Of a stretch of DNA of 64,000 nucleotides, positions 2,508 through 31,709 are shown piece after piece. The position numbers and the translations under genes were made by a program. The DNA is from a virus. The notes beneath the pieces were generated by a model, which saw only the letters and a list, made by a program, of their open reading frames with translations, ran no database searches and was not told the origin of the DNA. Positions within the stretch are counted from its first letter, which is position 1; each line of letters begins with the position of its first letter. The stretch is taken from the UHGV virus genome UHGV-1356548; one strand, 5' to 3'.

Positions 2508-2510
2508 ATA

Positions 2511-3630: not shown

Positions 3631-3637
3631 TTTAAAA

Positions 3638-6691: not shown

Positions 6692-6750
6692 TATTATAGA
6701 TTATCTGATACTATTAGTCAACACAAAAGTTACCTATCGCTGTGATAGGA

Positions 6751-7934: not shown

Positions 7935-7935
7935 T

Positions 7936-9340: not shown

Positions 9341-9355
9341 TCATATTATGCGTTA

Positions 9356-9814
9356 TTAGAAGTTTGTTTTTACACGTCCCTTTTCATCAACCTCGTTGTT
9401 AGCTAAAAGCGTTACAAAGTCTGTGAAACGGACATGAAGAACTCTTTTCTTATCAAGGTATCCTAAAGCCACCCCTGAGAAATTTAGCATCAAAGGGGCT
9501 AAAGAAGCTCTGGCACTGAAATGCTGTTGTTCTACCCTTCCAACACCCTTAGTGTAGGATGGGTTAAGATTGTAAGTTCTGAATCCCAGTTTTGTTGGAG
9601 CTTTAGAATTAAAAACAACTTTATAGCGTTTCTTACTCAACTTATGCTCCAGGATAAGCATTCCCTTATCGCCCTTGATAAGTTGAAAATCTGTAAAGTG
9701 CTCTTTTAAGACGAAAGGTAGTGCCAGTCCCATTGCCTGCCCCCTTTGTACCGCTGTCTCACCAAAAGCTTTCGCATCAGTGAGTTCTTTGGTCAAGTCT
9801 ATGCTTTTGATCAT
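9356..9814 (-). CDS. hypothetical protein
   Basis: 152-aa ORF; overlaps the 3' end of the methyltransferase ORF, so the start may be internal. Confidence 0.3.
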   Translation of the reverse strand: MIKSIDLTKELTDAKAFGETAVQRGQAMGLALPFVLKEHFTDFQLIKGDKGMLILEHKLSKKRYKVVFNSKAPTKLGFRTYNLNPSYTKGVGRVEQQHFSARASLAPLMLNFSGVALGYLDKKRVLHVRFTDFVTLLANNEVDEKGRVKTNF

Positions 9815-10625
9815 ACCTGGTCTCCAAAATGTATTGTAGTTCTTTCTTGCCTATACTCTTCATTCCGGCAGTCTTACCTGCTTCTTCTTGAAAAGAAGAA
9901 TAGCATTCAGAAAACACTCTGTCAACACCGTCAACTAAAGATTTTATGAAATATGTCGATTCTTCAGATTTTGGGTCATCATCCCCCAATACTTTTCCAG
10001 CATTATACCCAACACGTCTTACACAGAAGTCGTAGTCATCTGGAGTGCTAAAAGAAAATAACTTATTCTCTCCAATCTCTACAGGATCCCTATTACACGC
10101 CTTTTTCTCCCAAATTTGGAAAACACACGGCACGTCATAAGGTTTGCCATTAAGTAAAAACGAATTCTTAGGGCACCTTTCGCTGTAGACAAGGTGCATC
10201 GACATGTCCAATTTGTTTGCAAAAAATATTTTTTCAAATGTCCGTGGCAAGATGAAGGCTATGGCCCCTCCAAGCTCTAGCAATGATGCACAATGGTTGA
10301 AGAATTTGCAAGCTAAAGATGAATTCTTGCCAAATGGTGGGTTACCTATGAAGACATCTGCCTTGGGGTGCACCTCCAAGAAGTTTGCCTGAATGCACGG
10401 TGTTGGCCCTTCAAATTCAGGATCTGGTACTAAATCGTACGACAGTATCTCTGAAAATAGTTTTGAAAAAGAACCTCTTCCAGCAGAAGGCTCAACGTAT
10501 GCACAATTTCCATACTTATCTTTTACTTTACCAACAAGATATTCTGCATACTCAGGGTTTGTGTAATATTTGTCGTTGGACTCTTTCTTGCTCAAAGTGC
10601 CTCCAAAAGGAAAAGGGAGGCGCAA
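9777..10625 (-). CDS. DNA N6-adenine (or N4-cytosine) methyltransferase
   Basis: Motif X-like YYTNPEYAEYLV, SAM-binding EPSAGRGSF, catalytic NPPF (GNPPFG). Start uncertain because the annotated ATG lies inside a terminator hairpin; an alternative TTG start exists 9 codons downstream. Confidence 0.75.
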   Translation of the reverse strand: MRLPFPFGGTLSKKESNDKYYTNPEYAEYLVGKVKDKYGNCAYVEPSAGRGSFSKLFSEILSYDLVPDPEFEGPTPCIQANFLEVHPKADVFIGNPPFGKNSSLACKFFNHCASLLELGGAIAFILPRTFEKIFFANKLDMSMHLVYSERCPKNSFLLNGKPYDVPCVFQIWEKKACNRDPVEIGENKLFSFSTPDDYDFCVRRVGYNAGKVLGDDDPKSEESTYFIKSLVDGVDRVFSECYSSFQEEAGKTAGMKSIGKKELQYILETRYDQKHRLDQRTH

Positions 10626-10631
10626 GCCTCC
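10600..10631 (-). terminator. rho-independent terminator after exonuclease gene
   Basis: Minus-strand hairpin GGGAGGC-TTGC-GCCTCCC followed by U-rich CUUUUCCUUUU; 10 bp downstream of the stop at 10641. Confidence 0.5.
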
Positions 10632-10640
10632 CTATAATTG

Positions 10641-11624
10641 TTAGATTATCTGAATCAGGGTGTTTTTCATTTCTTCTCTGGTACGGATGTTGTTACGGTC
10701 ACGAACAACAGATCCACAACCTTCGCAGCGGTATGTTTTAAATGCACTCAGCTGAGTATATGCCAAAGCTTCTTCCTCGTGAAGGTGTTCTCCACCACAG
10801 CGTGGGCAACGAACCTTTGGCTCCTCGTCCTGGTAGTACAATGACATGTTTGGGTGCTGCTTAGCAAACGGGCGAGCCAGCAAATACAGTCCTTCCAGAG
10901 ACAGGATATCACCAACATTATACTCCCGCATCTGTTTAAATGCCTCAAGATCGCCATGGACACACTTGATCCACATTTCAAATGTGTGATCAATCAGTTT
11001 CTGTCTGGCCAGTTGGAAGTATTTGCATGCATACTCCAAAGTGTTTGCATTCAAACGGAATGCCTTCTTGATCATTTTAAGGGTGTCAACCTCTTTGTAG
11101 GGGCTTGTTGGAGGCAACCCGTGAAATGCAAATCGTTGGTTGGCCCACCCGCAGTCAAAACCTGAATTGTGGGCTACTGCGACATCGCATTTATCCAGAT
11201 AATACCACAAATCCTGAATCAATTCGAGATCATTGTGAATATCCTCATCCCACATTTTGTAATCGGGAAGAGCGCAGTCAACCACACTAGGGCTGTCTAA
11301 CCACTTACCTGCGAAAGTTAGCATATAAGGCATAACTTCAATACCACAGGTTTGAATGTTGGTCTTATAGTGCCCAAAGAACCAGCCGTTTGTTGGGGAT
11401 GTCTCTGTATCATACACCCAAACTTTAGCGCCTTTGTGCTCTTCAAGGAAGCGCTCCGTTGCTTCTCCTACAATCTCTGACATATTCTCTTGTGCACGTT
11501 TAAGCTGTAGTCGGATCCAGCTCTCACGTGACTCACGGCCTAAAAATTCACGAGCAATTTGTCTATTAGTGTATCCCTGTTGCTTTAGTGTTAAAATTTG
11601 CTCAAGAGTTAACTTTGTCATCAT
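10641..11624 (-). CDS. DEDD-type 3'-5' exonuclease with N-terminal HTH and C-terminal zinc ribbon
   Basis: Exo I-like VWVYDTETS and Exo II-like AHNSGFD motifs; N-terminal QQGYTNRQIAREF helix-turn-helix; C-terminal CPRCG...CEGCG. Confidence 0.55.
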   Translation of the reverse strand: MMTKLTLEQILTLKQQGYTNRQIAREFLGRESRESWIRLQLKRAQENMSEIVGEATERFLEEHKGAKVWVYDTETSPTNGWFFGHYKTNIQTCGIEVMPYMLTFAGKWLDSPSVVDCALPDYKMWDEDIHNDLELIQDLWYYLDKCDVAVAHNSGFDCGWANQRFAFHGLPPTSPYKEVDTLKMIKKAFRLNANTLEYACKYFQLARQKLIDHTFEMWIKCVHGDLEAFKQMREYNVGDILSLEGLYLLARPFAKQHPNMSLYYQDEEPKVRCPRCGGEHLHEEEALAYTQLSAFKTYRCEGCGSVVRDRNNIRTREEMKNTLIQII

Positions 11625-11636
11625 CGTTAAGATTCC

Positions 11637-11858
11637 TTAGTAAAACTGAAGAATGTCTTTTAAAGCGAAGTCACGATATTCGCCCTTGTCTACATCGAAG
11701 GCACGCATCAACCACTGCTCTTCTTTATGATACTCTGTAGAGCCAAACCATAAATTAGGCTCAGTAACGCAGCGATCTGCAACAACACCTTTCCAGTTAC
11801 GGTATTTCATCCTGATCAGGACTGAGTCGCAAGGATTGAATACCTTTTTCATCCCCAT
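11637..11858 (-). CDS. hypothetical protein
   Basis: 73-aa ORF. Confidence 0.3.
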   Translation of the reverse strand: MGMKKVFNPCDSVLIRMKYRNWKGVVADRCVTEPNLWFGSTEYHKEEQWLMRAFDVDKGEYRDFALKDILQFY

Positions 11859-12402
11859 AGAAATCTCTCTCCTCAGTTTTCTTTATAAACTCCTGCATGT
11901 AGAACTCAATAGCCTCATGCTTGGTGCACTCCGGATTAATGACAAGATTGAGATCTGATTCTGCTCGTGCAATGATCGTAGCTTTAGAGCATCTCCTCAA
12001 GAACTTTGTCATATCATCTCTGTAGTTTTTGTGGAGCGGGAAGTCGCTGTAGTCTTTCTCCAAATAGTCAGCCATCCGGCGCAACGCCTCTGATAAACTG
12101 CAATCTGTATACTCGTTACAGTATTTCATCCAGTATTTAAGCACATACCCCTCAAAGGTATTAGTGCATTGAGACAAAACACCCCTGCAACGACCAGTCA
12201 GATGATCATGATCTAAACAAGGCTTACGAAGTGGCTCGCACAAGATTGGATCAAGACCATCCTGCTCCTCTGACAATTCTTTTCGAAAGTTGGCTATGTC
12301 CTTAGAATCTTTTAACCACCCGTTATGAACGGGAGCTTTGACAGCTTTCTTTCTTATTTTACGCTTTGCGATAATCCCTCCAGATGCGCCCTGCCTATCC
12401 AA
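11797..12402 (-). CDS. endonuclease VII-like (T4 gp49 family) nuclease
   Basis: CLDHDHLTGRCRGVLSQCTN matches the Endo VII C-x-DHDH-x-G-x-RG-x-L-x-CN signature; start ambiguous (ORF overlaps upstream gene by 49 nt). Confidence 0.55.
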   Translation of the reverse strand: MDRQGASGGIIAKRKIRKKAVKAPVHNGWLKDSKDIANFRKELSEEQDGLDPILCEPLRKPCLDHDHLTGRCRGVLSQCTNTFEGYVLKYWMKYCNEYTDCSLSEALRRMADYLEKDYSDFPLHKNYRDDMTKFLRRCSKATIIARAESDLNLVINPECTKHEAIEFYMQEFIKKTEERDFYGDEKGIQSLRLSPDQDEIP

Positions 12403-12983
12403 TAAGCATCTGCAAGATCGGCCTTACCTTGTACCAAATTGATCCCATCTAGGAACCCAGGTTCAGATACTTCGCAGGCCTTAACCATCAACTTTTTATC
12501 CATCGTAACAGGTTTCTTCACAGTATGCTCTTTACCTGTCCTTTTGTCAAGCTTTTTCTTCTCCTCAAAAGCAAGTTCCTCAGGAAGATGACTACGAGCA
12601 AACTTTTTGGCAGTTGTTGGTGTCACTGTGTGAACCTTAAACAGGCCGTCATTTTCACAATCAGCTAAAGCATCCCAAAGCATAACTTCGAGACCGTAAA
12701 ACAACCCAGCCAGTTCACGTGTGGCATCCCCGCGTGATCCAAAGGAAAGCCCTTCCATAACCACGGTGTCAACGTGGTGCGTGTGGATATAATATCTGAC
12801 CTGTTTGCAGATCCAGTCAATACGCTCAGCAGCTGTTGCAAAAGAAACCGTCCCTGGTTTCTTCTCTTTTGCAGATGAGCTTTGAGTTCGTAACACAACC
12901 TTGTGAACAGGCTTTCCATCGTCCCATACAACGCAAGCTGTGTGTGTCAACGACTGGTCTATGGATAATAGACGCTCTCTCAT
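12354..12983 (-). CDS. RuvC-like (RNase H fold) resolvase candidate
   Basis: N-terminal LSIDQSLTHTACVVWDDG and later VVMEGLSFG resemble RuvC-family catalytic segments; weak assignment. Confidence 0.35.
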   Translation of the reverse strand: MRERLLSIDQSLTHTACVVWDDGKPVHKVVLRTQSSSAKEKKPGTVSFATAAERIDWICKQVRYYIHTHHVDTVVMEGLSFGSRGDATRELAGLFYGLEVMLWDALADCENDGLFKVHTVTPTTAKKFARSHLPEELAFEEKKKLDKRTGKEHTVKKPVTMDKKLMVKACEVSEPGFLDGINLVQGKADLADAYWIGRAHLEGLSQSVK

Positions 12984-13315
12984 GCTTCCTCATCCTCCTC
13001 TCCTTCATCAGGAGCATAAGCCTTATCTTTGAACAGGACGAGAGAGCAAAGCTTAACATCTGTTTCCACACTGGTGAACATGCATAACCGCTCGCCCTCA
13101 ATCAGCTCACAATCCTCTTTTAAAACAGCAGACCATACACGGTCATCTGCGTAATCATCCGTGTACAGGATGTATGAAATAGTGTCATCTTCATACAACC
13201 GCCACATACCTGTGGCAACAATAAATGTATTTTTTGTTTTAATGGTCCCTGTTGTATGATCATCCTCAAAAACAGCTTCCATAATTGCATTATCTACAGA
13301 ATTTTTAGTCATCAA
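12980..13315 (-). CDS. hypothetical protein
   Basis: 111-aa acidic ORF with 4-nt overlaps on both sides. Confidence 0.3.
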   Translation of the reverse strand: MMTKNSVDNAIMEAVFEDDHTTGTIKTKNTFIVATGMWRLYEDDTISYILYTDDYADDRVWSAVLKEDCELIEGERLCMFTSVETDVKLCSLVLFKDKAYAPDEGEEDEEA

Positions 13316-14451
13316 ATTGCTCCAACATTTCTAAGAACGTTAACAAGTTTTGTTTGATCATTGAATGTTCGCTTCATATACAAACAGTCAAAAATTATAC
13401 TCATCCATTGACCTACGGAAATTCTACGATCAACACCATTGAAGTCAGTATACTTAACAACACCTTTCGGGAACCACTTCTTGTACTGATCAATAATAGC
13501 CACCCACATCTCCTTTGGAGTGCTGCACTGAGACAGTAGGTAGAATGCTGAGGCATCCCCGAACTTACCCTTACCGATAAGTCCTTGATACGGCTTAATG
13601 TTGTCAGCAGAGTCACCACACAGCATTTGGTATCCGAAGAACAGCATTCCGTAACCACCAACCTCTCCATTAGGCTTCATGAAGATGTTCCCCATACCGT
13701 TATCGATCAGCATAGGGGTTTCCCTTACAAAATCCCCCTTATCGTTTCGCATGGGATCGAACACAAGCCCAGGTAGTGTTCTTTGGTCCTTATCAATAGA
13801 GATAATAAACTTGTTGAACTTACCTGTTTTTTGGTAGTGGTTCCAACCTTCAAATTGCTGAATAGCTAACCAGTCGTCAGCCTCGATACCGTTGATCACT
13901 TGAGCATTATACTGCTTTTGTAGATACTGTCTTGCATCTCCAAGCAGCAGTGGTCGAAGAGTATTGTTACGGTTGGCCTTGTATCTTTCCGGCATTGGAA
14001 GATCTAGTCTGAAGTTACCTGTGCCTCCCAACACCCCGACACATCGCTCTTCCGGAATACCTAGATAGTTAAGAACTGCATTAGCTTTACACTTAATTGT
14101 GTGTAAGCAGTTCTCTACAGGATCAGGGGTTTGGATATCCAAGACATCGAAATCTTCGCGTGTCCACGGAATAAACTCCTTTCCAGCCTTTTTACATGCG
14201 GCTTCACGGTTGGTATTCTCAGCTTTTAACCAACCACCAACGGTGTTCTTCTGCCGCCCCCAGAACTCTGTTCGTGTTTTAAACATCTTCTTGCGTCCGG
14301 AGGCTTTGTGTGTTACCTCAATTGTCCTTTTTTCACAACTTGCCGCAGCTTGATATGCAACCTGGTCGAAGTCATAATAAACTATAGCGTCAGGTTCGAG
14401 AAGATCAGCAAGACAATCTACAGATTCAATAAGTGGATATTCTCTACTCAA
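13312..14451 (-). CDS. 5'-3' exonuclease / flap endonuclease (FEN, T4 RNase H-like)
   Basis: GIEADDWLA (GxEADD) and CGDSADNIKP (GDxxDNIP) motifs characteristic of FEN/5'-exonuclease family. Confidence 0.7.
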   Translation of the reverse strand: MSREYPLIESVDCLADLLEPDAIVYYDFDQVAYQAAASCEKRTIEVTHKASGRKKMFKTRTEFWGRQKNTVGGWLKAENTNREAACKKAGKEFIPWTREDFDVLDIQTPDPVENCLHTIKCKANAVLNYLGIPEERCVGVLGGTGNFRLDLPMPERYKANRNNTLRPLLLGDARQYLQKQYNAQVINGIEADDWLAIQQFEGWNHYQKTGKFNKFIISIDKDQRTLPGLVFDPMRNDKGDFVRETPMLIDNGMGNIFMKPNGEVGGYGMLFFGYQMLCGDSADNIKPYQGLIGKGKFGDASAFYLLSQCSTPKEMWVAIIDQYKKWFPKGVVKYTDFNGVDRRISVGQWMSIIFDCLYMKRTFNDQTKLVNVLRNVGAI

Positions 14452-15568: not shown

Positions 15569-15775
15569 TCATTCAAAGAAATGGGTGCGAGGACAAGATC
15601 CAGCCTCGCCTTGTTTCACAAGCTCGTAGAGCTCACCTTGGCTTGTCTCATAAAGGCAAATACGTTTACCATTGTCCCGATATACATCGACAAGATACGC
15701 TGTTTCACCTGCAAACACGACACCACAGGCCAGACATGCTGCCATGAACAAAATTGCCAACAGAAAATCTTTCAT
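15569..15775 (-). CDS. small secreted/membrane protein (signal peptide)
   Basis: 68-aa ORF with hydrophobic N-terminus (LLAILFMAACLACGVVFA); lies downstream of the endolysin. Confidence 0.35.
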   Translation of the reverse strand: MKDFLLAILFMAACLACGVVFAGETAYLVDVYRDNGKRICLYETSQGELYELVKQGEAGSCPRTHFFE

Positions 15776-15838
15776 GGTTAAACCCTTTCGAACATTCTAT
15801 GAGGCAACAATACCACGTCCGTGTGGTTATGTCAATGA

Positions 15839-16309
15839 TCAATCAAGGACAACACCGCCTGCCTTTTTAAACACCTCGATCAACTTCTCAATCTTCTGTT
15901 CATGCTGACCATATCCAGCACCAGGTAACGAAGCCCAGCGGGAACGGCATTTATGGATAGCCTCGTGGATACGCCCTTCGTCAATGTCGGCGAGAGCCTT
16001 GCACTCACGGATCAGTTGCAACGCAATCTTGTCCTGACTGGCAGGGCCAAAATCTGGCAATCCTAACTGTTCCATGTAGTGTTTAGCAAACTTCTCCAAA
16101 ACCTGGTAACGCCCAGCAGCGGAGGAGGTAAGTTTAGCATTTAGCTTAACGTACACACCTGGATGCTTGCTGTAATCGCTAAACAGCTTGCCACCAACTA
16201 TGACATCATAGCCCCGATCCTTGGTGGGTTGTCTACCATTATCTGTGCCTTCTGAATATGCGATCATATCCAAGAAAGCTTTTCGTTGAACATTTTTATC
16301 AAGTTTCAT
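15839..16309 (-). CDS. endolysin, lambda R-like lytic transglycosylase
   Basis: Near-collinear match by eye to phage lambda R along the whole 156 aa (NVQRKAFLDMIAYSEGTDNGRQ..., GYDVIVGG, AGRYQ, WASLPGAGYGQ). Confidence 0.85.
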   Translation of the reverse strand: MKLDKNVQRKAFLDMIAYSEGTDNGRQPTKDRGYDVIVGGKLFSDYSKHPGVYVKLNAKLTSSAAGRYQVLEKFAKHYMEQLGLPDFGPASQDKIALQLIRECKALADIDEGRIHEAIHKCRSRWASLPGAGYGQHEQKIEKLIEVFKKAGGVVLD

Positions 16310-16433
16310 TTTTCATACTCTCCAGTTTACTCATAACTAACCAGATCAACAACACTACACAGTGTGGTTATGTAGGTGCCAATTGAAAAACCATCATTCG
16401 ATTGGCTACCGTTACCTACTAAACCTTCCTACA

Positions 16434-17717
16434 TCATTCCAGAACCTCCCAAGTGTCTGGGTCAACATTTCGGACGCAGATACCGACAGGGAATTGGTAG
16501 TTGTTGTCTTCTGTCCTTGATTGATATTTGAAGGTGACAAACTTGCCGATCATTTCCTGCATCCTGTCATAGCTACGCTCCTCGTGCGTGCCTTTCATCT
16601 TCATTTTAACAATAACACCTTCCTTGTCAACACAGATAAGAACACCTTCATCATTCTTATCTTTCTCAACGTCAATAACTTTCACCTCTGCGTCGTTGAA
16701 CTTTTTCCATTTCAATGCTTCAGATGTTCGCTGACCGTACTCGTATTTACCGCAGAAATTACGCATGATAGTACCTTCATATCCTTCGGACATGAATATA
16801 CCAACAGATTCTTCGCAATGATCAACTGTGTACGCAAGCTCTGCGTCAACAACCTTGATATGGTCAAGCATCAGAGTGGTAACGGTATCCTCTGCATCCA
16901 TAAGATCCTTGCAGCGTCCAGACTCTGTTTCTGGATCCCACCACACCTTGTCGCTAGGAATATCAAAAATGTGATACTCCAGATCGTAGCTACAGTACCC
17001 ACCGTAACGCAAATCATCACGAACAGGCTCAACATCGACAGGAATATCTACCTTGTTGAAGTTTTTGTATGTTGATAAACCTGCCTTAATTGCTGCATGA
17101 CGGCGTTTTTTATCTGCCTCATAGTCTTTATCGATCTCGGCCTGAATCTCTTCCTGTGTGCGCCACCGTTTAGCAAGAGACACTATTTTCTGCAAAGGAA
17201 GACCATGAATGTATAGTTCCCCATCAAGTTGTTTAATCCCAGTGGTAGAATGGAAAGAACGAAGTTGCTCTAAAAGCTTTCCTTGAATAGGGTAGGACTT
17301 ATTACCACGGGAAATAAATTTAGGCTCACCATTTTGGAAAACAACAAGCAGACGAAGGCCATCTAACTTACGCAAGATCCAGCAAGGTAATTTAAGTGCC
17401 TTGCCACGCTTCAGGTAGTCATGCACCAGCATGGGTAAAAGATCAACACCCTGCTCGCAATCTTCCATGTTTTCAACATACCCCAGACGGACTTGTTTTT
17501 CCCACTTGCTGATAGCCTCAAGCTCGGCCTGTTGCTCAGCTGTAGTCTCGTTGGCACGACCTACGTTCTTAGGTGTGCATACCGTCTCTTTGTACTGCAG
17601 TTTACCATCAAGCTTGCCAAACTCTACGATAACCTTATCACCATCCGTGAATACTTTCCACTGTTGGTAGCTGCCATCTTTATTCAGTGCGTACAGTGTT
17701 GTTTTGATCTGATGCAT
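16434..17717 (-). CDS. ATP-dependent DNA ligase (intact copy)
   Basis: Motif I KLDGLR (KxDGxR), motif III LDGELYIHG, motif IV EGTIMR, motif V LKWKK; 427 aa. Its last 47 codons lie outside the duplicated unit. Confidence 0.7.
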   Translation of the reverse strand: MHQIKTTLYALNKDGSYQQWKVFTDGDKVIVEFGKLDGKLQYKETVCTPKNVGRANETTAEQQAELEAISKWEKQVRLGYVENMEDCEQGVDLLPMLVHDYLKRGKALKLPCWILRKLDGLRLLVVFQNGEPKFISRGNKSYPIQGKLLEQLRSFHSTTGIKQLDGELYIHGLPLQKIVSLAKRWRTQEEIQAEIDKDYEADKKRRHAAIKAGLSTYKNFNKVDIPVDVEPVRDDLRYGGYCSYDLEYHIFDIPSDKVWWDPETESGRCKDLMDAEDTVTTLMLDHIKVVDAELAYTVDHCEESVGIFMSEGYEGTIMRNFCGKYEYGQRTSEALKWKKFNDAEVKVIDVEKDKNDEGVLICVDKEGVIVKMKMKGTHEERSYDRMQEMIGKFVTFKYQSRTEDNNYQFPVGICVRNVDPDTWEVLE

Positions 17718-17986
17718 TACTCGGCCTCTTCCTTAAAAATTTTAAACATCTCTTCTTTACTCATTACCAACCAGTCTCCCATAAAGTCAACTAGCCAATC
17801 TCCCTGGTACAAGACAAGGTTACCAAAAGGCTCGACAAGCTCACACATGCGACGAAGATCTCTGGTCCGAACAGGTGACGATGTAAACACACCTGTATCA
17901 ATCCACCGTTGCAGATCAGATACTGATGAAGAGCTTCCGTCAAACTGATGTGCTTCTACAGGTTTAGCAAGATTAAATAACGGCAT
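17717..17986 (-). CDS. hypothetical protein
   Basis: 89-aa ORF; stop overlaps ligase start (TAATG). Confidence 0.3.
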   Translation of the reverse strand: MPLFNLAKPVEAHQFDGSSSSVSDLQRWIDTGVFTSSPVRTRDLRRMCELVEPFGNLVLYQGDWLVDFMGDWLVMSKEEMFKIFKEEAE

Positions 17987-18281
17987 TGCAGTCCTCCTTC
18001 TGTAGTAGGTCTTTTATAGGATAAACAAGTAAGTGTGGGTCGTAATAACGTATAGTCCTATTCTGCCACACTATGAACTTTATTACAACCAAATTTACAA
18101 TATCTTTATCACCATGTAGCCCAACACACACATTTGTCCATATTTTGTGGTTGAAGACCTTGCTATCGATGTAGATTTTAGTGTCAAACTTATCTTCCAT
18201 TCTACCAATAAGTTTGATCAGCTCCTTCATCTGGTCGCCAAACACAGCATCTTTTTCAAGATCTCTGGAATGCTTGTACAT
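17973..18281 (-). CDS. hypothetical protein
   Basis: 102-aa ORF. Confidence 0.3.
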   Translation of the reverse strand: MYKHSRDLEKDAVFGDQMKELIKLIGRMEDKFDTKIYIDSKVFNHKIWTNVCVGLHGDKDIVNLVVIKFIVWQNRTIRYYDPHLLVYPIKDLLQKEDCNAVI

Positions 18282-18310
18282 AACTGACTACCTCACTGCA
18301 TACTTTCCAT

Positions 18311-18336
18311 AATAAGTAAAGCCGGGTAATCCCGGC
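18311..18336 (-). terminator. rho-independent terminator (copy 1)
   Basis: Minus-strand GCCGGG-ATTA-CCCGGC hairpin followed by UUUACUUAUU, just 3' of the MazG-like gene stop. Confidence 0.5.
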
Positions 18337-18343
18337 TATGTTG

Positions 18344-19057
18344 TTAAATATACTCTGTTACATCCTTGAAGCTCGAAGGCTTCATAATCTTACCTTTACT
18401 GTCAAGGAATATAATAACTTTATTGCCGTTGTAGAACTCCTCTTTAGCAACGAAACCTTCGTAGCGACCACCAAAACGACGCTCAAGATCTTTAATCTCC
18501 AACTCGATGAGTTGTTCAGCAGGCATATCTGCACTGGCACCGTGTGAATGCCGTAGATGGTTGATCCGTGCAAACTTACTGTCATTAGATTTTAGAACCT
18601 TCCGCATCATCCCACACACATCCCCGCTAAGCTGGAACAGCAAAGCTGTTGATAACTCCGCTAGTCGGTAAGCTGACGCTCTTTGCTTGGATGTGTTTTT
18701 CGCAGCGATCAGTGTATCATAGAACTCACCGATCTTGAACTTAAGACCTCGCGGATTATCAAACAGGTTTGACCACTTTTCGTGGTTATCATTAACAAGA
18801 TAAGCTGCATAACTTGTGACAACGTGAAGATCGCAGGCCTCTTTTAGCAGGTGATCTCCACCATCACCTTTCTCCAGCTCTTCCAAAACCTCATTGAACT
18901 CTTCCTCAATGAAGCTAAGCTGTAATTCGAATGGTGTGTATGATTTTTTCACTTTAGCTGCCACACGGTTCCAGTTTTCCACCCAGTTGGCAGACCAAAG
19001 GTAGTTTTCAGGCTGGGACAGTTTTTCCAGGTTGTCGATCAGTTTAGTATTCAGCAT
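18344..19057 (-). CDS. MazG-like nucleotide pyrophosphohydrolase domain protein
   Basis: FIEEEFNEVLEELEKGDGGDHLLKEACDLHVV fits the EExxE...E...D acidic helix pattern of MazG/NTP-PPase family; C-terminal ~100 aa unassigned. Confidence 0.4.
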   Translation of the reverse strand: MLNTKLIDNLEKLSQPENYLWSANWVENWNRVAAKVKKSYTPFELQLSFIEEEFNEVLEELEKGDGGDHLLKEACDLHVVTSYAAYLVNDNHEKWSNLFDNPRGLKFKIGEFYDTLIAAKNTSKQRASAYRLAELSTALLFQLSGDVCGMMRKVLKSNDSKFARINHLRHSHGASADMPAEQLIELEIKDLERRFGGRYEGFVAKEEFYNGNKVIIFLDSKGKIMKPSSFKDVTEYI

Positions 19058-19070
19058 TAAAGGTCTCCTT

Positions 19071-19832
19071 TTAAAGTTCCATAAAGTTTTCTACAGTTTC
19101 AATAAATGCTTTATCAGAGAAAGCGTCAACAGCACCGTTAAACCATACAGGGATCCCGCGATCCTCATATTGATAAAGGTCGCTACGTGAAATGCCACTT
19201 CCATCTGCACTCTGCGAATCATACTTGTTTACAATCAGCAGTTTTGTGCCTTTACAAGTAGCAGGAAACAATTCCCAGTTAAAATTAATAACTGTGTTAG
19301 AACAACCTACCAGGATCACCATATCATTGCTTGTGAGAGATGTCAACAGGTCATACATGTCTGTATACTTAGGAGCAACCTCACCGAAGAACACTACATT
19401 GGGCTTAACCCAGGTATACTTGCCTGTATCTACCTCCGTGTATCCGATATTTTTAATTACATCATTACCTTCAGCATCTTCGTAGGTGATTTCAGGCAAA
19501 TACCCGTGGACATGTAAAATATCTTCATGTTTTACACCAGCACGCTCCAGCAAATCATCTACATTGGTAGTAAGGTTGATCACACGACCAGACCAGCGGG
19601 AATACCACTCAGCGATCCGAAGATGTGCAAGGTTAGGATCAACACTGCCCAGAGCTACACGACGTGCATTGTAAAAGTCATGCACCTTATAGTAGTTCTT
19701 GGCAAAGGTGTGGATGTTGCACACCTCATCGATGCTGAAATTCTCCCACATTGCAGTGCTACCAGATCGGAAAGTGGGAATACCAGATTCAGCGCTCAAA
19801 CCAGCACCGGAGATAATAATCAGTCGTCGCAT
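19071..19832 (-). CDS. Sir2-family (sirtuin-like) NAD-dependent protein, Zn-module absent
   Basis: GAGLSAESGIPTFR (sirtuin GAGxSxxSGIPxFR), DPNLAHL...TTNVDDLLERAG (PNxxH...TQNxDxLhxxAG), HVHG, KPNVVFFGE (RPxVVxFGE); no CxxC...CxxC zinc tetrad. Confidence 0.8.
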   Translation of the reverse strand: MRRLIIISGAGLSAESGIPTFRSGSTAMWENFSIDEVCNIHTFAKNYYKVHDFYNARRVALGSVDPNLAHLRIAEWYSRWSGRVINLTTNVDDLLERAGVKHEDILHVHGYLPEITYEDAEGNDVIKNIGYTEVDTGKYTWVKPNVVFFGEVAPKYTDMYDLLTSLTSNDMVILVGCSNTVINFNWELFPATCKGTKLLIVNKYDSQSADGSGISRSDLYQYEDRGIPVWFNGAVDAFSDKAFIETVENFMEL

Positions 19833-19840
19833 AAGTGTCC

Positions 19841-20191
19841 TCAGTAGATGTTTTGTTTAATCTCTATTCCAAACTTCTTGAATGAGTCAGCAGCAAGCAT
19901 AAATTTACGAGCTGCCGATGGATTAGAAGTATGCACGAAAATAATCACGTTGTCAATAAGTGGTGGCTTTCCGAATACAAGTTTCTCCTCTAGCGCAGAG
20001 AAGCAGTCGTACCCTTCAAGCACTTCACCTAGATCATTGTCAAAATGCCACTCAGAAACGCGCCTGTAGAGCTTTCTATTATCGTTAATAAAATCCATGA
20101 ACTCAGAAGAGTTCTTCAGCCAAAGAGCATCTTGGATTCCGTAATTTGACGGATCTCTCAAGTCATCTAGCCACACAATCAACTTCTTCAT
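19841..20191 (-). CDS. hypothetical protein
   Basis: Start set to ATG forming an ATGA overlap with the RNA ligase stop (MKKLIVWLDD...); 116 aa. Confidence 0.4.
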   Translation of the reverse strand: MKKLIVWLDDLRDPSNYGIQDALWLKNSSEFMDFINDNRKLYRRVSEWHFDNDLGEVLEGYDCFSALEEKLVFGKPPLIDNVIIFVHTSNPSAARKFMLAADSFKKFGIEIKQNIY

Positions 20192-21123
20192 TGCATATAG
20201 TCCTCGTTGTGAAAATAGCAATCAAGTATCTCACGGCGTTCCTGCTCCAGGAGGCAGTTCCACACATCTTCTGTGTAATTGCTACGAATGAAGTTTACCA
20301 TGCCATAAAACTCTTCGTCAATACGTTTAAAGATATCATCATCCCAAATCTTCCAAGCTTTACCCCTCATTACGGCCTTCCGTGCCAAATAGTATGGAGA
20401 CTTGATCTTCAGCTGCAGGTCATAAGGGTAGTAAGGCTTACGGATCATATACCCTTCGCCCCTTGTTTCTGCAGCTAATTCTTTTGCATAGCTGAACGGG
20501 ATTTCACGCACAGTGTGAGGACGTTTTGCACCAAGGTATTTGGCAATCCCATCTAAAGCTGCTTCTGGTAGCATTATTCCAGAATCATTATATCTGCAAC
20601 CTATCAAATATGCGCCATGGTCTTCTTGAACAATATGCGGATCTGAAGGGTGACAAATTTCAAACATGAATGTCATGTTTTCATTGCCCATAACCTTCTT
20701 GATAAGATCTAAATTACCACATTGCTCTTGGATGGTTTCCTTTGCAAGGTTACAATATGGAGAATCAAGAGACCCGGTTGTTGAGAACAATAGGTCACCT
20801 TTATGAGATGATACCACACCAAGGAATCCGTTCTTTTTCTCTACCGCAGTCACAAGCTTATTGTCAGGCAGGTTGGTGGAGTTTTCTCCCAAGTTAAACA
20901 CTTTTGTGAAGGGCCATGCCACAACATTTCCTTCATTACCTACAACAATGCCTCGGCACTCCAGTAAACGAGGGGACAAATGCCATAAATTGTTGTAAAA
21001 TACTTTTCTAGCATATTTATAGATCTTTAACCCGAGATCTGGGTAATACCTACTGGTTACAAGACCTTTGTCAACTAGGTCGTCTGCATTAAAATACTTC
21101 ATCATACGTTCCTCATTTGTCAT
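20188..21123 (-). CDS. RNA ligase-like nucleotidyltransferase
   Basis: Candidate motif I VEKKNGFLG (K-x-N-G), motif IV EGYMIRKPY, motif V LKIKSPYY; 311 aa; adjacent to kinase/phosphoesterase genes. Confidence 0.55.
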   Translation of the reverse strand: MTNEERMMKYFNADDLVDKGLVTSRYYPDLGLKIYKYARKVFYNNLWHLSPRLLECRGIVVGNEGNVVAWPFTKVFNLGENSTNLPDNKLVTAVEKKNGFLGVVSSHKGDLLFSTTGSLDSPYCNLAKETIQEQCGNLDLIKKVMGNENMTFMFEICHPSDPHIVQEDHGAYLIGCRYNDSGIMLPEAALDGIAKYLGAKRPHTVREIPFSYAKELAAETRGEGYMIRKPYYPYDLQLKIKSPYYLARKAVMRGKAWKIWDDDIFKRIDEEFYGMVNFIRSNYTEDVWNCLLEQERREILDCYFHNEDYMQ

Positions 21124-21166
21124 TTTGTCAGTCTATCCTGCCACACAAATAACCTAGTGTCAACAC

Positions 21167-21195
21167 TTGAAATTAACAAAACAGTCAGGTATACT
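21167..21195 (+). promoter_or_regulatory. sigma70-like promoter, duplicated copy at the duplication junction
   Basis: TTGAAA-N17-TATACT identical to the kinase promoter at 25828-25856; here it points into the antisense of the truncated ligase copy. Confidence 0.45.
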
Positions 21196-21235
21196 ACCGT
21201 TGAAATTAAAACGGAGGGTCACTATGTCTAAAATG

Positions 21236-22378
21236 CTATATATCGTGCGTGCCTTTCATCTTCATTTTAACAATAACACCTTCCTTGTCAACACAGATAA
21301 GAACACCTTCATCATTCTTATCTTTCTCAACGTCAATAACTTTCACCTCTGCGTCGTTGAACTTTTTCCATTTCAATGCTTCAGATGTTCGCTGACCGTA
21401 CTCGTATTTACCGCAGAAATTACGCATGATAGTACCTTCATATCCTTCGGACATGAATATACCAACAGATTCTTCGCAATGATCAACTGTGTACGCAAGC
21501 TCTGCGTCAACAACCTTGATATGGTCAAGCATCAGAGTGGTAACGGTATCCTCTGCATCCATAAGATCCTTGCAGCGTCCAGACTCTGTTTCTGGATCCC
21601 ACCACACCTTGTCGCTAGGAATATCAAAAATGTGATACTCCAGATCGTAGCTACAGTACCCACCGTAACGCAAATCATCACGAACAGGCTCAACATCGAC
21701 AGGAATATCTACCTTGTTGAAGTTTTTGTATGTTGATAAACCTGCCTTAATTGCTGCATGACGGCGTTTTTTATCTGCCTCATAGTCTTTATCGATCTCG
21801 GCCTGAATCTCTTCCTGTGTGCGCCACCGTTTAGCAAGAGACACTATTTTCTGCAAAGGAAGACCATGAATGTATAGTTCCCCATCAAGTTGTTTAATCC
21901 CAGTGGTAGAATGGAAAGAACGAAGTTGCTCTAAAAGCTTTCCTTGAATAGGGTAGGACTTATTACCACGGGAAATAAATTTAGGCTCACCATTTTGGAA
22001 AACAACAAGCAGACGAAGGCCATCTAACTTACGCAAGATCCAGCAAGGTAATTTAAGTGCCTTGCCACGCTTCAGGTAGTCATGCACCAGCATGGGTAAA
22101 AGATCAACACCCTGCTCGCAATCTTCCATGTTTTCAACATACCCCAGACGGACTTGTTTTTCCCACTTGCTGATAGCCTCAAGCTCGGCCTGTTGCTCAG
22201 CTGTAGTCTCGTTGGCACGACCTACGTTCTTAGGTGTGCATACCGTCTCTTTGTACTGCAGTTTACCATCAAGCTTGCCAAACTCTACGATAACCTTATC
22301 ACCATCCGTGAATACTTTCCACTGTTGGTAGCTGCCATCTTTATTCAGTGCGTACAGTGTTGTTTTGATCTGATGCAT
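21236..22378 (-). pseudogene. 3'-truncated duplicate of ATP-dependent DNA ligase
   Basis: Identical to residues 1-377 of the 16434-17717 product, then ends ...GTHDI* at the duplication junction, losing the last 47 residues. Confidence 0.6.
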
Positions 22379-22647
22379 TACTCGGCCTCTTCCTTAAAAA
22401 TTTTAAACATCTCTTCTTTACTCATTACCAACCAGTCTCCCATAAAGTCAACTAGCCAATCTCCCTGGTACAAGACAAGGTTACCAAAAGGCTCGACAAG
22501 CTCACACATGCGACGAAGATCTCTGGTCCGAACAGGTGACGATGTAAACACACCTGTATCAATCCACCGTTGCAGATCAGATACTGATGAAGAGCTTCCG
22601 TCAAACTGATGTGCTTCTACAGGTTTAGCAAGATTAAATAACGGCAT
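22378..22647 (-). CDS. hypothetical protein (duplicate of 17717-17986)
   Basis: Identical translation to copy 1. Confidence 0.3.
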   Translation of the reverse strand: MPLFNLAKPVEAHQFDGSSSSVSDLQRWIDTGVFTSSPVRTRDLRRMCELVEPFGNLVLYQGDWLVDFMGDWLVMSKEEMFKIFKEEAE

Positions 22648-22942
22648 TGCAGTCCTCCTTCTGTAGTAGGTCTTTTATAGGATAAACAAGTAAGTGTGGG
22701 TCGTAATAACGTATAGTCCTATTCTGCCACACTATGAACTTTATTACAACCAAATTTACAATATCTTTATCACCATGTAGCCCAACACACACATTTGTCC
22801 ATATTTTGTGGTTGAAGACCTTGCTATCGATGTAGATTTTAGTGTCAAACTTATCTTCCATTCTACCAATAAGTTTGATCAGCTCCTTCATCTGGTCGCC
22901 AAACACAGCATCTTTTTCAAGATCTCTGGAATGCTTGTACAT
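22634..22942 (-). CDS. hypothetical protein (duplicate of 17973-18281)
   Basis: Identical translation to copy 1. Confidence 0.3.
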   Translation of the reverse strand: MYKHSRDLEKDAVFGDQMKELIKLIGRMEDKFDTKIYIDSKVFNHKIWTNVCVGLHGDKDIVNLVVIKFIVWQNRTIRYYDPHLLVYPIKDLLQKEDCNAVI

Positions 22943-22971
22943 AACTGACTACCTCACTGCATACTTTCCAT

Positions 22972-22997
22972 AATAAGTAAAGCCGGGTAATCCCGGC
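22972..22997 (-). terminator. rho-independent terminator (copy 2)
   Basis: Duplicate of the 18311-18336 hairpin. Confidence 0.5.
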
Positions 22998-23004
22998 TAT
23001 GTTG

Positions 23005-23718
23005 TTAAATATACTCTGTTACATCCTTGAAGCTCGAAGGCTTCATAATCTTACCTTTACTGTCAAGGAATATAATAACTTTATTGCCGTTGTAGAACTC
23101 CTCTTTAGCAACGAAACCTTCGTAGCGACCACCAAAACGACGCTCAAGATCTTTAATCTCCAACTCGATGAGTTGTTCAGCAGGCATATCTGCACTGGCA
23201 CCGTGTGAATGCCGTAGATGGTTGATCCGTGCAAACTTACTGTCATTAGATTTTAGAACCTTCCGCATCATCCCACACACATCCCCGCTAAGCTGGAACA
23301 GCAAAGCTGTTGATAACTCCGCTAGTCGGTAAGCTGACGCTCTTTGCTTGGATGTGTTTTTCGCAGCGATCAGTGTATCATAGAACTCACCGATCTTGAA
23401 CTTAAGACCTCGCGGATTATCAAACAGGTTTGACCACTTTTCGTGGTTATCATTAACAAGATAAGCTGCATAACTTGTGACAACGTGAAGATCGCAGGCC
23501 TCTTTTAGCAGGTGATCTCCACCATCACCTTTCTCCAGCTCTTCCAAAACCTCATTGAACTCTTCCTCAATGAAGCTAAGCTGTAATTCGAATGGTGTGT
23601 ATGATTTTTTCACTTTAGCTGCCACACGGTTCCAGTTTTCCACCCAGTTGGCAGACCAAAGGTAGTTTTCAGGCTGGGACAGTTTTTCCAGGTTGTCGAT
23701 CAGTTTAGTATTCAGCAT
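23005..23718 (-). CDS. MazG-like domain protein (duplicate)
   Basis: Identical translation to 18344-19057. Confidence 0.4.
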   Translation of the reverse strand: MLNTKLIDNLEKLSQPENYLWSANWVENWNRVAAKVKKSYTPFELQLSFIEEEFNEVLEELEKGDGGDHLLKEACDLHVVTSYAAYLVNDNHEKWSNLFDNPRGLKFKIGEFYDTLIAAKNTSKQRASAYRLAELSTALLFQLSGDVCGMMRKVLKSNDSKFARINHLRHSHGASADMPAEQLIELEIKDLERRFGGRYEGFVAKEEFYNGNKVIIFLDSKGKIMKPSSFKDVTEYI

Positions 23719-23731
23719 TAAAGGTCTCCTT

Positions 23732-24493
23732 TTAAAGTTCCATAAAGTTTTCTACAGTTTCAATAAATGCTTTATCAGAGAAAGCGTCAACAGCACCGTT
23801 AAACCATACAGGGATCCCGCGATCCTCATATTGATAAAGGTCGCTACGTGAAATGCCACTTCCATCTGCACTCTGCGAATCATACTTGTTTACAATCAGC
23901 AGTTTTGTGCCTTTACAAGTAGCAGGAAACAATTCCCAGTTAAAATTAATAACTGTGTTAGAACAACCTACCAGGATCACCATATCATTGCTTGTGAGAG
24001 ATGTCAACAGGTCATACATGTCTGTATACTTAGGAGCAACCTCACCGAAGAACACTACATTGGGCTTAACCCAGGTATACTTGCCTGTATCTACCTCCGT
24101 GTATCCGATATTTTTAATTACATCATTACCTTCAGCATCTTCGTAGGTGATTTCAGGCAAATACCCGTGGACATGTAAAATATCTTCATGTTTTACACCA
24201 GCACGCTCCAGCAAATCATCTACATTGGTAGTAAGGTTGATCACACGACCAGACCAGCGGGAATACCACTCAGCGATCCGAAGATGTGCAAGGTTAGGAT
24301 CAACACTGCCCAGAGCTACACGACGTGCATTGTAAAAGTCATGCACCTTATAGTAGTTCTTGGCAAAGGTGTGGATGTTGCACACCTCATCGATGCTGAA
24401 ATTCTCCCACATTGCAGTGCTACCAGATCGGAAAGTGGGAATACCAGATTCAGCGCTCAAACCAGCACCGGAGATAATAATCAGTCGTCGCAT
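23732..24493 (-). CDS. Sir2-family protein (duplicate)
   Basis: Identical translation to 19071-19832. Confidence 0.8.
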   Translation of the reverse strand: MRRLIIISGAGLSAESGIPTFRSGSTAMWENFSIDEVCNIHTFAKNYYKVHDFYNARRVALGSVDPNLAHLRIAEWYSRWSGRVINLTTNVDDLLERAGVKHEDILHVHGYLPEITYEDAEGNDVIKNIGYTEVDTGKYTWVKPNVVFFGEVAPKYTDMYDLLTSLTSNDMVILVGCSNTVINFNWELFPATCKGTKLLIVNKYDSQSADGSGISRSDLYQYEDRGIPVWFNGAVDAFSDKAFIETVENFMEL

Positions 24494-24501
24494 AAGTGTC
24501 C

Positions 24502-24852
24502 TCAGTAGATGTTTTGTTTAATCTCTATTCCAAACTTCTTGAATGAGTCAGCAGCAAGCATAAATTTACGAGCTGCCGATGGATTAGAAGTATGCACGAA
24601 AATAATCACGTTGTCAATAAGTGGTGGCTTTCCGAATACAAGTTTCTCCTCTAGCGCAGAGAAGCAGTCGTACCCTTCAAGCACTTCACCTAGATCATTG
24701 TCAAAATGCCACTCAGAAACGCGCCTGTAGAGCTTTCTATTATCGTTAATAAAATCCATGAACTCAGAAGAGTTCTTCAGCCAAAGAGCATCTTGGATTC
24801 CGTAATTTGACGGATCTCTCAAGTCATCTAGCCACACAATCAACTTCTTCAT
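24502..24852 (-). CDS. hypothetical protein (duplicate of 19841-20191)
   Basis: Identical translation to copy 1. Confidence 0.4.
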   Translation of the reverse strand: MKKLIVWLDDLRDPSNYGIQDALWLKNSSEFMDFINDNRKLYRRVSEWHFDNDLGEVLEGYDCFSALEEKLVFGKPPLIDNVIIFVHTSNPSAARKFMLAADSFKKFGIEIKQNIY

Positions 24853-25784
24853 TGCATATAGTCCTCGTTGTGAAAATAGCAATCAAGTATCTCACGGCGT
24901 TCCTGCTCCAGGAGGCAGTTCCACACATCTTCTGTGTAATTGCTACGAATGAAGTTTACCATGCCATAAAACTCTTCGTCAATACGTTTAAAGATATCAT
25001 CATCCCAAATCTTCCAAGCTTTACCCCTCATTACGGCCTTCCGTGCCAAATAGTATGGAGACTTGATCTTCAGCTGCAGGTCATAAGGGTAGTAAGGCTT
25101 ACGGATCATATACCCTTCGCCCCTTGTTTCTGCAGCTAATTCTTTTGCATAGCTGAACGGGATTTCACGCACAGTGTGAGGACGTTTTGCACCAAGGTAT
25201 TTGGCAATCCCATCTAAAGCTGCTTCTGGTAGCATTATTCCAGAATCATTATATCTGCAACCTATCAAATATGCGCCATGGTCTTCTTGAACAATATGCG
25301 GATCTGAAGGGTGACAAATTTCAAACATGAATGTCATGTTTTCATTGCCCATAACCTTCTTGATAAGATCTAAATTACCACATTGCTCTTGGATGGTTTC
25401 CTTTGCAAGGTTACAATATGGAGAATCAAGAGACCCGGTTGTTGAGAACAATAGGTCACCTTTATGAGATGATACCACACCAAGGAATCCGTTCTTTTTC
25501 TCTACCGCAGTCACAAGCTTATTGTCAGGCAGGTTGGTGGAGTTTTCTCCCAAGTTAAACACTTTTGTGAAGGGCCATGCCACAACATTTCCTTCATTAC
25601 CTACAACAATGCCTCGGCACTCCAGTAAACGAGGGGACAAATGCCATAAATTGTTGTAAAATACTTTTCTAGCATATTTATAGATCTTTAACCCGAGATC
25701 TGGGTAATACCTACTGGTTACAAGACCTTTGTCAACTAGGTCGTCTGCATTAAAATACTTCATCATACGTTCCTCATTTGTCAT
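24849..25784 (-). CDS. RNA ligase-like nucleotidyltransferase (duplicate)
   Basis: Identical translation to 20188-21123. Confidence 0.55.
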   Translation of the reverse strand: MTNEERMMKYFNADDLVDKGLVTSRYYPDLGLKIYKYARKVFYNNLWHLSPRLLECRGIVVGNEGNVVAWPFTKVFNLGENSTNLPDNKLVTAVEKKNGFLGVVSSHKGDLLFSTTGSLDSPYCNLAKETIQEQCGNLDLIKKVMGNENMTFMFEICHPSDPHIVQEDHGAYLIGCRYNDSGIMLPEAALDGIAKYLGAKRPHTVREIPFSYAKELAAETRGEGYMIRKPYYPYDLQLKIKSPYYLARKAVMRGKAWKIWDDDIFKRIDEEFYGMVNFIRSNYTEDVWNCLLEQERREILDCYFHNEDYMQ

Positions 25785-25827
25785 TTTGTCAGTCTATCCT
25801 GCCACACAAATAACCTAGTGTCAACAC

Positions 25828-25856
25828 TTGAAATTAACAAAACAGTCAGGTATACT
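25828..25856 (+). promoter_or_regulatory. sigma70-like promoter of kinase/phosphoesterase operon
   Basis: TTGAAA (25828-25833), 17-bp spacer, TATACT (25851-25856); GGAGGG RBS precedes ATG 25885; direct repeat TTGAAATTAA occurs twice in this region. Confidence 0.5.
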
Positions 25857-25884
25857 ACCGTTGAAATTAAAACGGAGGGTCACT

Positions 25885-26295
25885 ATGTCTAAAATGCTAT
25901 ATATCGTGCGTGGTCTACCAGGGTCTGGCAAATCAACACTGGCAAATGCGCTATCTTTAGAGGGTCTGTATCCACATTTTGAGAACGACATGTTCTGGTA
26001 TGACGATGACGGCAATTACAACTGGGATGCAAGTAAAGTAACACTCGCAGCAAAATGGTGCAAAGATAACGTAGAAGATATGATGCGTATGGGATACGAC
26101 CGTATCGTGGTAAGTAATACGTTTACAAAAGAAAAACATGTGCAGGAATATGTTGACATGGCAATCAGTCATGGGTATAGTTATACCGTGATCGTGGTTG
26201 AAAACCGCCACGGTAATAAAAGCATTCATGATGTTCCAGACAAGGTTGTGGATCGTATGGAACGCCAGCTTAAAAACTGCATTAAACTTAAATGA
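25885..26295 (+). CDS. P-loop polynucleotide 5'-kinase-like protein
   Basis: Walker A RGLPGSGKST at residues 9-18 and overall resemblance to the kinase domain of T4 Pnk; start moved to ATG 25885 (the ORF-track TTG start at 25828 lies in the promoter). Confidence 0.55.
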   Translation: MSKMLYIVRGLPGSGKSTLANALSLEGLYPHFENDMFWYDDDGNYNWDASKVTLAAKWCKDNVEDMMRMGYDRIVVSNTFTKEKHVQEYVDMAISHGYSYTVIVVENRHGNKSIHDVPDKVVDRMERQLKNCIKLK

Positions 26296-31026: not shown

Positions 31027-31425
31027 ATGATTTCAGTTTTAACATGGCTGAGCAGGTATAGAGGGATCATAAAAGGTTTAGTTTTTGCAGCTGCGATAGG
31101 TACAGCTTATCTTGGGGCCGTGTATTGGTTTAACTCTAAGCTTAATGATGCCTACCAAGAAGGTGTGTCAGCAACAGAGTTAAAGTGGGAACGGATCCTT
31201 GATCAGCAACAAAAGCAGGCCGACAAAATTAAAATGGGCCACGCAGAGGAGGTTAAAAACCTTGAAAAATCCCTTTCTGATCTACAGGATAAATTAAATA
31301 TGGCTGAGAAGGCAGGTAAAGAAAAGCAGATTATTTACCTCCAGTCACCTGAGGGTAAGAAGTCAACACTCCCTGATCAGCTTATAGATATTTATAATGA
31401 GAGTATTAATCAGGAGGGTAGATGA
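31027..31425 (+). CDS. i-spanin (Rz-like)
   Basis: N-terminal transmembrane helix (GIIKGLVFAAAIGTAYLGAVYWF) then charged coiled-coil-like periplasmic domain; ATGA overlap with the downstream lipoprotein gene. Confidence 0.6.
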   Translation: MISVLTWLSRYRGIIKGLVFAAAIGTAYLGAVYWFNSKLNDAYQEGVSATELKWERILDQQQKQADKIKMGHAEEVKNLEKSLSDLQDKLNMAEKAGKEKQIIYLQSPEGKKSTLPDQLIDIYNESINQEGR

Positions 31426-31709
31426 GAGTTGCTACACTGTTTATTGTGTGCTTGTTATTATGTGGGTGTGCAACCAGCGTTGAGAGAGAATACAAGATTG
31501 ACCCTCCGGATGTAGGAAGGTTGATTGTTAAACCCCCGGAAGGTGCCATGAAACCACCTGCTAAAGCTATGCCTTTGAAGAAAGGTGCGCCAGATGCAGT
31601 GAATTCTGGCATTATGAGGGATAATAATCTGTCTTGTAGCAATGATAGAGCTAAATTGATCATTTTGCAAGACTATATTAGAACACTGTTTCCAAAGGAG
31701 AGAGGTTAA
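31422..31709 (+). CDS. o-spanin (Rz1-like outer-membrane lipoprotein)
   Basis: Signal peptide with lipobox-like LLLCGCA, proline-rich mature region (PPDVG...KPPEGAMKPPAKAMP). Confidence 0.6.
   Translation: MRVATLFIVCLLLCGCATSVEREYKIDPPDVGRLIVKPPEGAMKPPAKAMPLKKGAPDAVNSGIMRDNNLSCSNDRAKLIILQDYIRTLFPKERG

Follow-up and report, generated by a model that had tools for sequence, protein, structure and literature searches.

The window analysed here, a stretch of 64,000 nucleotides from the viral genome UHGV-1356548, encodes an endolysin of the phage lambda R type whose gene stands by itself beside a DNA ligase gene, at a distance from the spanin genes and with no holin gene at its side. This raises the question of how such an enzyme leaves the cytoplasm, and whether the scattering of the lysis genes reflects a distinct lysis pathway or a layout already familiar from other phages.

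Sequence comparison showed 100% identity between a 4-kb stretch around the endolysin gene and Escherichia phage I29 (ON286975.1); at least 80% of this 4-kb query is matched in each of 112 related records, nearly all of them at 90-99% identity. As judged from its sequence, the window is a Vequintavirus (rV5-like myovirus) genome; it reads in the opposite direction to the I29 record, the annotation of which served as its gene map. Scattered lysis genes without a recognised holin are the published state for Vequintavirus, and the observation from which we start is accurate and already known. In rV5 the lysin was identified as gp89, no holin homologue was found, and a 78-aa protein with two transmembrane domains (TMDs), gp129, distant from the lysin, was proposed as the holin (Kropinski et al. 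2013, PMC3606486), so that the gap in the annotation of the genus has been documented since 2013. The genome announcement of LL12 from the Center for Phage Technology lists an endolysin, an i-spanin and an o-spanin, and the KPP-1 paper likewise found no holin. In CB7, rV5 and PVP-SE1 the spanin pair adjoins the large terminase gene, outside any classic lysis cassette (PMC7344957), and the rv5 spanin family is listed under the "Separated" architecture by Kongari et al. 2018.

The first-pass annotation of this DNA had described the endolysin as almost collinear with lambda R, and the description is accurate: residues 4-154 align without a gap with residues 3-153 of the lambda lysozyme (1AM7/3D3D; E 3.4e-56), with identity at 93 of the 151 positions (61.6%). 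The lambda lysozyme (1AM7, 3D3D) was the sole match in a search of PDB sequences with the endolysin, which also matches the endolysin family phrog_90 (E 3e-56). The surroundings of the catalytic glutamate, which in lambda we take to be E19, in the SEGT motif, read AYSEGTDNG in the window and AWSEGTDNG in lambda, with SEGTDNG kept. By full-length homology and by this catalytic motif the protein is classed as a lambda R-type endolysin, with transglycosylase chemistry predicted. Scans against Pfam and NCBIfam gave nothing significant for the endolysin, the neighbouring 68-aa protein, the spanins or the transmembrane candidates outside the window; the informative searches for these lysis-region proteins were solely those against PHROGs and PDB sequences. 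The position of the gene in a minus-strand block beside the DNA ligase gene (Table 1) was also correctly reported: it lies 124 nt downstream of the ligase gene and is placed in a DNA-metabolism transcription unit.

Table 1. Features of the window that bear on the lysis genes
Feature	Position	Strand	Evidence
68-aa pre-protein gene; predicted Sec signal peptide, residues 1-22 (nt 15710-15775), and 46-aa mature part	15569..15775	-	phrog_4641
Second copy of the ~28-nt block, upstream of the 68-aa gene, overlapping the TTGACA-17-TATTGT promoter	15805-15832	-	
Sigma-70-like promoter of the 68-aa gene, TTGACA-17-TATTGT plus upstream TG	15807..15835	-	promoter scan, 10/12 match
Endolysin, lambda R-type lytic transglycosylase ("lysozyme"), 156 aa, predicted soluble	15839..16309	-	PDB 1AM7/3D3D and phrog_90
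~28-nt block ACATAACCACAC..GT[AG]TTGTTG upstream of the endolysin	16346..16373	-	shared with the upstream region of the 68-aa gene
DNA ligase gene	16434-17717	-	
Perfect tandem duplication (4,661 bp), between endolysin and spanins	16582..25903	.	exact self-match
Chimeric ORF created by the duplication	21167-21736	+	
i-spanin, 132 aa, N-terminal TMD at about residues 14-37	31027..31425	+	phrog_4297, E 1.5e-49; I29 annotation I-spanin
o-spanin, 95 aa, lipobox LLCG/C	31422..31709	+	phrog_1267, E 1.3e-22; I29 annotation O-spanin
Large terminase ORF	31709-33256		

The Rz/Rz1-like spanins, which had been placed just upstream of the terminase, are recovered there by their PHROG matches, and the large terminase ORF starts where the o-spanin ends. 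Hydropathy and the match to an Rz-like spanin PHROG agree on a single N-terminal TMD followed by a periplasmic domain in the i-spanin, while the o-spanin, which has the sequence MRVATLFIVCLLLCGCATS, begins with the lipoprotein signal MRVATLFIVCLLLCG followed by the lipobox cysteine. The start of the o-spanin overlaps the stop of the i-spanin by 4 nt, which corresponds to the "separated" architecture. The two genes are predicted to encode a two-component i-/o-spanin pair of the rV5 family with this architecture. A strong hairpin (30977-31008; -16.9 kcal/mol, z = -3.1) with a U6 tract ends about 18 nt before the start codon of the i-spanin, and neither a sigma-70-like nor a late-motif site was found between the two. 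Because a terminator-like hairpin thus stands just before the i-spanin gene, transcription of the spanins and the terminase would need read-through or an unrecognised promoter. The T4-late-like motif TGGTAAAATA was not found upstream of the endolysin or of the spanins. With at most one mismatch allowed, this motif is enriched (20 matches against 6.1 expected), and the matches are found mostly on the plus strand among the structural genes (33280-62423), which agrees with the late promoters proposed in the rV5 paper (PMC3606486), in which homologues of gp33, gp45 and gp55 were not found.

The separation of endolysin and spanins, given in the first-pass annotation as about 15 kb, holds for the window itself, where it measures ~14.7 kb, but this figure is inflated because a window-specific tandem duplication of 4,661 bp is counted in it; in the I29 record the distance is ~10.06 kb, and the spanin coordinates of that record are offset from those of the window by exactly the length of the duplication. 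The two copies (16582-21242 and 21243-25903) are identical, matching exactly over 4,670 nt at an offset of 4,661, and their junction (21242/21243) shows a 9-bp microhomology, TCGTGCGTG. The halves of a 300-nt probe across the junction were found in 122 related phage records, and in none of them (0/122) is at least 80% of the probe covered as one place. The duplicated segment takes in the greater part of the DNA ligase gene, two small ORFs, a pair of Sir2-like genes, another small ORF, the gene for RNA ligase and a divergent promoter region; the duplicated ORFs first showed up in the scan for transmembrane segments described below. The duplication may be real and mark a duplication mutant, may have arisen in assembly, or may be an edit made to the window; it is no part of the lysis system and sets the reported distance.

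Two further observations were made between the duplication and the spanins. Four copies of the 17-bp palindrome TGTCCGTGATACGGACA (TGTCCG-N5-CGGACA), spaced at 21-22 bp, occupy positions 27327-27412 within a non-coding, unannotated gap of 660 nt (27256-27916), just downstream of a putative transcriptional regulator gene (26905-27255), and resemble an array of operators or iterons. The tRNA cluster contains, at 30262-30360, an unusual tRNA-like gene (97-99 nt) to which ARAGORN assigns a 4-nt anticodon (atcc) and which scores only 35.5 bits with the Rfam tRNA model; it is absent from the I29 annotation, as are the Tyr (29872-29958) and Ser (30073-30163) tRNAs found by ARAGORN.

The product of the gene next to the endolysin, a 68-aa protein with a signal peptide, had been named in the first-pass annotation as the one membrane candidate nearby. 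The signal peptide is well supported; the membrane candidacy is not, as the protein is predicted to be cleaved and secreted. A hydropathy scan finds a single strongly hydrophobic segment of 19 residues at its N-terminus. Across Vequintavirus the protein is 95-100% identical, and in more divergent relatives (63-87% identity) the hydrophobic N-terminus is the variable part, while the sequence from G23 onward is nearly invariant. We aligned 16 members of the family, among them the proteins of Serratia phage Kashira and of Salmonella phage SSBI34 as well as metagenomic sequences recovered by HMM search, and in every one of them (16/16) the n-region is basic, the h-region hydrophobic and the residues at -3/-1 small (here MK-[h-region]-VFA/G). 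The cleavage sites in the family are VFA/G, TFA/G, AWS/G, AWA/G, VRS/G, AHA/S and AHA/G, and further AQA/S, AEA/A, AEA/S and ARA/T. Since the mature part is invariant, whereas the hydrophobic N-terminus before it varies and is followed by a small-x-small site, the product is best understood as a cleaved, Sec-secreted protein. A reading of the ORF as a lipoprotein was considered and rejected: the homologues carry M, F, S or L in place of C14 and C17, and they have no lipobox in common.

The mature domain of ~46 residues has the invariant positions T25, L28, D30, Y32, C40, Y42, C61 and P62 and is net acidic (5 K+R, 8 D+E). An AlphaFold (AF2) model of the protein predicts four beta-strands, with a pLDDT of 85-93 in the mature part. 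Foldseek searches with this model against PDB and BFVD returned the identical protein, generic SH3/OB-like small beta domains at E >= 0.02 and uncharacterised phage proteins, with no PDB match at E <= 0.001 and, the identical protein aside, E > 1e-3 for the best hits in either database. A whole-library HMM search with the family alignment recovered about 8 true small relatives; matches in three long proteins (807, 1368 and 655 aa) were rejected as low-complexity or repeat sequence. The 68-aa product is accordingly predicted to be a small Sec-secreted periplasmic protein capable of forming one disulfide, and neither a membrane protein nor a holin. With T4 RI and Spackle it shares the nature of a small phage protein that carries an N-terminal secretion signal to the periplasm; it differs from them in having no sequence similarity, in its predicted four-stranded beta domain and in a signal that is apparently cleaved and not of the SAR type, and no likeness to either was detected in Pfam, PHROG and NCBIfam or by Foldseek against PDB and BFVD.

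The genomic setting of this mini-protein admits more than one interpretation. Throughout Vequintavirus its gene lies immediately downstream of that of the endolysin, and a ~28-nt block is found ~50 nt upstream of both start codons, with the exact 12-mer ACATAACCACAC occurring in the whole 137-kb I29 genome only at the two places that correspond to 16362-16373(-) and 15821-15832(-) of the window. The shared block hints at co-regulation of the two genes, which would fit a lysis-related role better than the reading that we prefer. According to that reading the mini-protein is most likely an independently transcribed accessory factor that acts in the periplasm rather than a core lysis protein, because the gene is found in other settings with its own signals. 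In Kashira and SSBI34 the homologue lies between the ligase and exonuclease genes, none of its neighbours there is annotated as an endolysin, and it is preceded by its own terminator, to which SSBI34 adds a near-consensus sigma-70 promoter; in phage FV3 a gene for an HNH endonuclease is inserted between the endolysin and the 68-aa gene, and the promoter block has been kept with the latter. The role of such a factor would possibly be in superinfection exclusion or envelope modification, a functional guess that we infer and nothing more.

We consider it very unlikely that the mini-protein is instead a new periplasmic regulator of lysis, whether it senses time in the manner of an antiholin or inhibits the lytic transglycosylase; if it were, it would bind the periplasmic domain of a Vequintavirus holin of non-canonical type. 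The literature yielded nothing relevant on Vequintavirus transcriptomics that would time the expression of the candidates. It is likewise very unlikely that the 68-aa protein is itself the missing holin or antiholin, with a signal-anchor that escapes cleavage and keeps it in the membrane (class III, T4 T-like or RI-like), and that it controls the release of the endolysin. Beyond the adjacency of the genes and the upstream block that the I29 genome holds nowhere else, such a role would draw on a hydrophobic stretch long enough, at 19 residues, to span a membrane, and on the precedent of T4 RI, which is likewise a small secreted periplasmic regulator. The same stretch is, however, the least conserved part of the protein, and with the small-x-small site that follows it in all 16 members it looks cleavable, so that no TMD is predicted to be retained in the mature protein. 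A charged hydrophilic cytoplasmic tail at the C-terminus is also absent, its place being taken by the 46-residue domain with a predicted all-beta fold. The arrangements in Kashira and SSBI34, where no lambda R-type endolysin is annotated beside the gene, and in FV3, where the two genes are separated, likewise speak against a role of this kind.

The scan for transmembrane segments used a simple Kyte-Doolittle window, applied in six frames to each ORF of 35 aa or more, and its results were compared with the I29 annotation. The genes on the annotated strands of the window that have a strong transmembrane segment are limited to those for the tape measure protein, the i- and o-spanins and the 68-aa product; the remaining hydrophobic ORFs are antisense to annotated genes or out of frame inside them, and there is no multi-TM ORF on a coding strand. 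This bears out the earlier statement that no holin-like ORF of this type adjoins either the endolysin or the spanins, and the scan finds no holin among the small ORFs of the window. A canonical holin is also not found immediately outside it, the nearest published candidates being ~7 kb (I29_118) and ~25 kb (I29_167) past its left end. Elsewhere in the I29 record, the annotated CDSs of 86463-136462 were scanned by script and the ORF list of 1900-13600 was read, with no holin-like annotated CDS seen in the latter.

The first of the two candidates, I29_118 (record 93306-93542), is the homologue of gp129, a protein of 78 aa with TMDs at about 3-26 and 37-58 and the tail KNIRKEKKEGRDGDRT; the second, I29_167 (record 111656-112027), has 123 aa, with two N-terminal TMDs and a soluble tail of 74 aa. 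Public sources disagree on which of them is the putative holin: Kropinski 2013 proposed the 78-aa gp129, whereas the 123-aa protein is labelled "putative holin" in five BASEL records (MaxBurger, DrSchubert, MaxTheCat, RudolfGeigy and JeffSchatz), and no record detected by tblastn labels the gp129 homologue a holin. The 123-aa protein is conserved at >=92.7% in 119 records, against 54-100% for the 78-aa protein. The gp129 homologue, which is located in a block of small genes, is regarded as an uncertain holin because the loop between its TMDs is strongly basic (SRRRVK) and a sigma-70-like promoter lies immediately upstream; the loop fits awkwardly with the N-in/C-in topology of class II. Neither candidate matches a holin family in Pfam, PHROG or NCBIfam, and a Pfam scan of six proteins, the transmembrane candidates included, recovered no holin family; a T4 RI-like protein was not recognised either. 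The I29 genome also encodes a SleB-like "cell wall hydrolase" beside rIIA (I29_2, record 1980-2480), with a typical N-terminal signal peptide, MKIKIFAIILSAFLSLPVVAAP; this hydrolase is a second muralytic enzyme, predicted to be secreted.

It could be asked, then, whether these phages have a canonical holin at all. If they did not, the inner membrane would be breached by other means and the dispersed layout would be that of a truly different lysis pathway, one possibility being that the signal-peptide-bearing SleB-like hydrolase acts together with depolarisation by another small membrane protein. The presence of this second muralytic enzyme and of several other small single-TMD proteins, the lack of any match to a holin family and the failure of experts to identify a holin are in keeping with such a pathway. 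Holins are, however, notoriously undetectable by homology, and the lack of a family match is for this reason weak evidence; two plausible candidates with two TMDs and charged C-termini exist; and the soluble lambda R-type endolysin, conserved in more than 100 genomes, has no known exit from the cytoplasm other than a holin. We regard a pathway without a canonical holin as very improbable. The last alternative, for which nothing favourable was found, would make the endolysin one of the SAR or signal-peptide kind, able to leave the cytoplasm without a holin, and is effectively refuted as far as the sequence can tell, since the enzyme's N-terminus MKLDKNVQRKAFLDM is hydrophilic (the top 15-aa Kyte-Doolittle mean in the first 30 residues is -0.04, compared with 2.7 for the real signal peptide of the adjoining 68-aa ORF) and the protein is collinear from residue 4 with the cytoplasmic lambda R. 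Hydropathy thus reveals neither a TM segment in the endolysin nor a SAR or other signal sequence at its N-terminus, the check for which the first-pass annotation had called; with a hydrophilic N-terminus and no secretion signal a holin is needed, and accumulation in the cytoplasm is to be expected, as with lambda R.

The locus is therefore very probably a standard Vequintavirus endolysin gene within a dispersed lysis set of the T4 style, with the holin encoded elsewhere and the mini-protein as an accessory. As far as can be drawn from established lysis biology, the endolysin would accumulate, folded, in the cytoplasm until a holin encoded elsewhere in the genome, putatively the gp129 homologue or the 123-aa protein, permeabilises the inner membrane at a set time. 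Released through the hole, it would degrade the murein, after which the spanins would disrupt the outer membrane. The secreted mini-protein would act in the periplasm as an independently transcribed accessory factor.

The endolysin resembles lambda R in its ungapped similarity and intact SEGTDNG, in its length (156 against 158 aa) and in the want of an export signal, but while R is part of the S-R-Rz/Rz1 cassette in lambda, the endolysin here stands alone in a DNA-metabolism unit, downstream of the DNA ligase gene. In T4 the lysis genes e, t, rI and pseT.3/pseT.2, the last two encoding the spanins, are unlinked, and rIIA/rIIB are present. Vequintavirus shares with T4 the unlinked genes for endolysin, holin and spanins, the "separated" spanins and, in I29, homologues of rIIA and rIIB; it differs in that the T4 endolysin is of the E type and the present one of the lambda R type. 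Dispersed lysis genes being a known layout of the T4 type, that of the window is ordinary and not an anomaly. Against rV5 (lysin gp89, putative holin gp129, spanins beside TerL), the window has the same genes in the same order and belongs to the same genus, and differs in the extra 4,661-bp tandem duplication between endolysin and spanins.

As it stands, the finding has little consequence, because it restates a documented gap in the annotation of Vequintavirus. The small addition made here is that the gene adjoining the endolysin need no longer be counted among the holin candidates, its product being instead a predicted member of a conserved family of secreted mini-proteins across Vequintavirinae. 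Cocktails sold commercially or used in therapy include Vequintavirus phages (LL12 in PreforPro), and knowledge of their holin would be useful for the engineering of lysis timing, a question that the two published candidates make testable.
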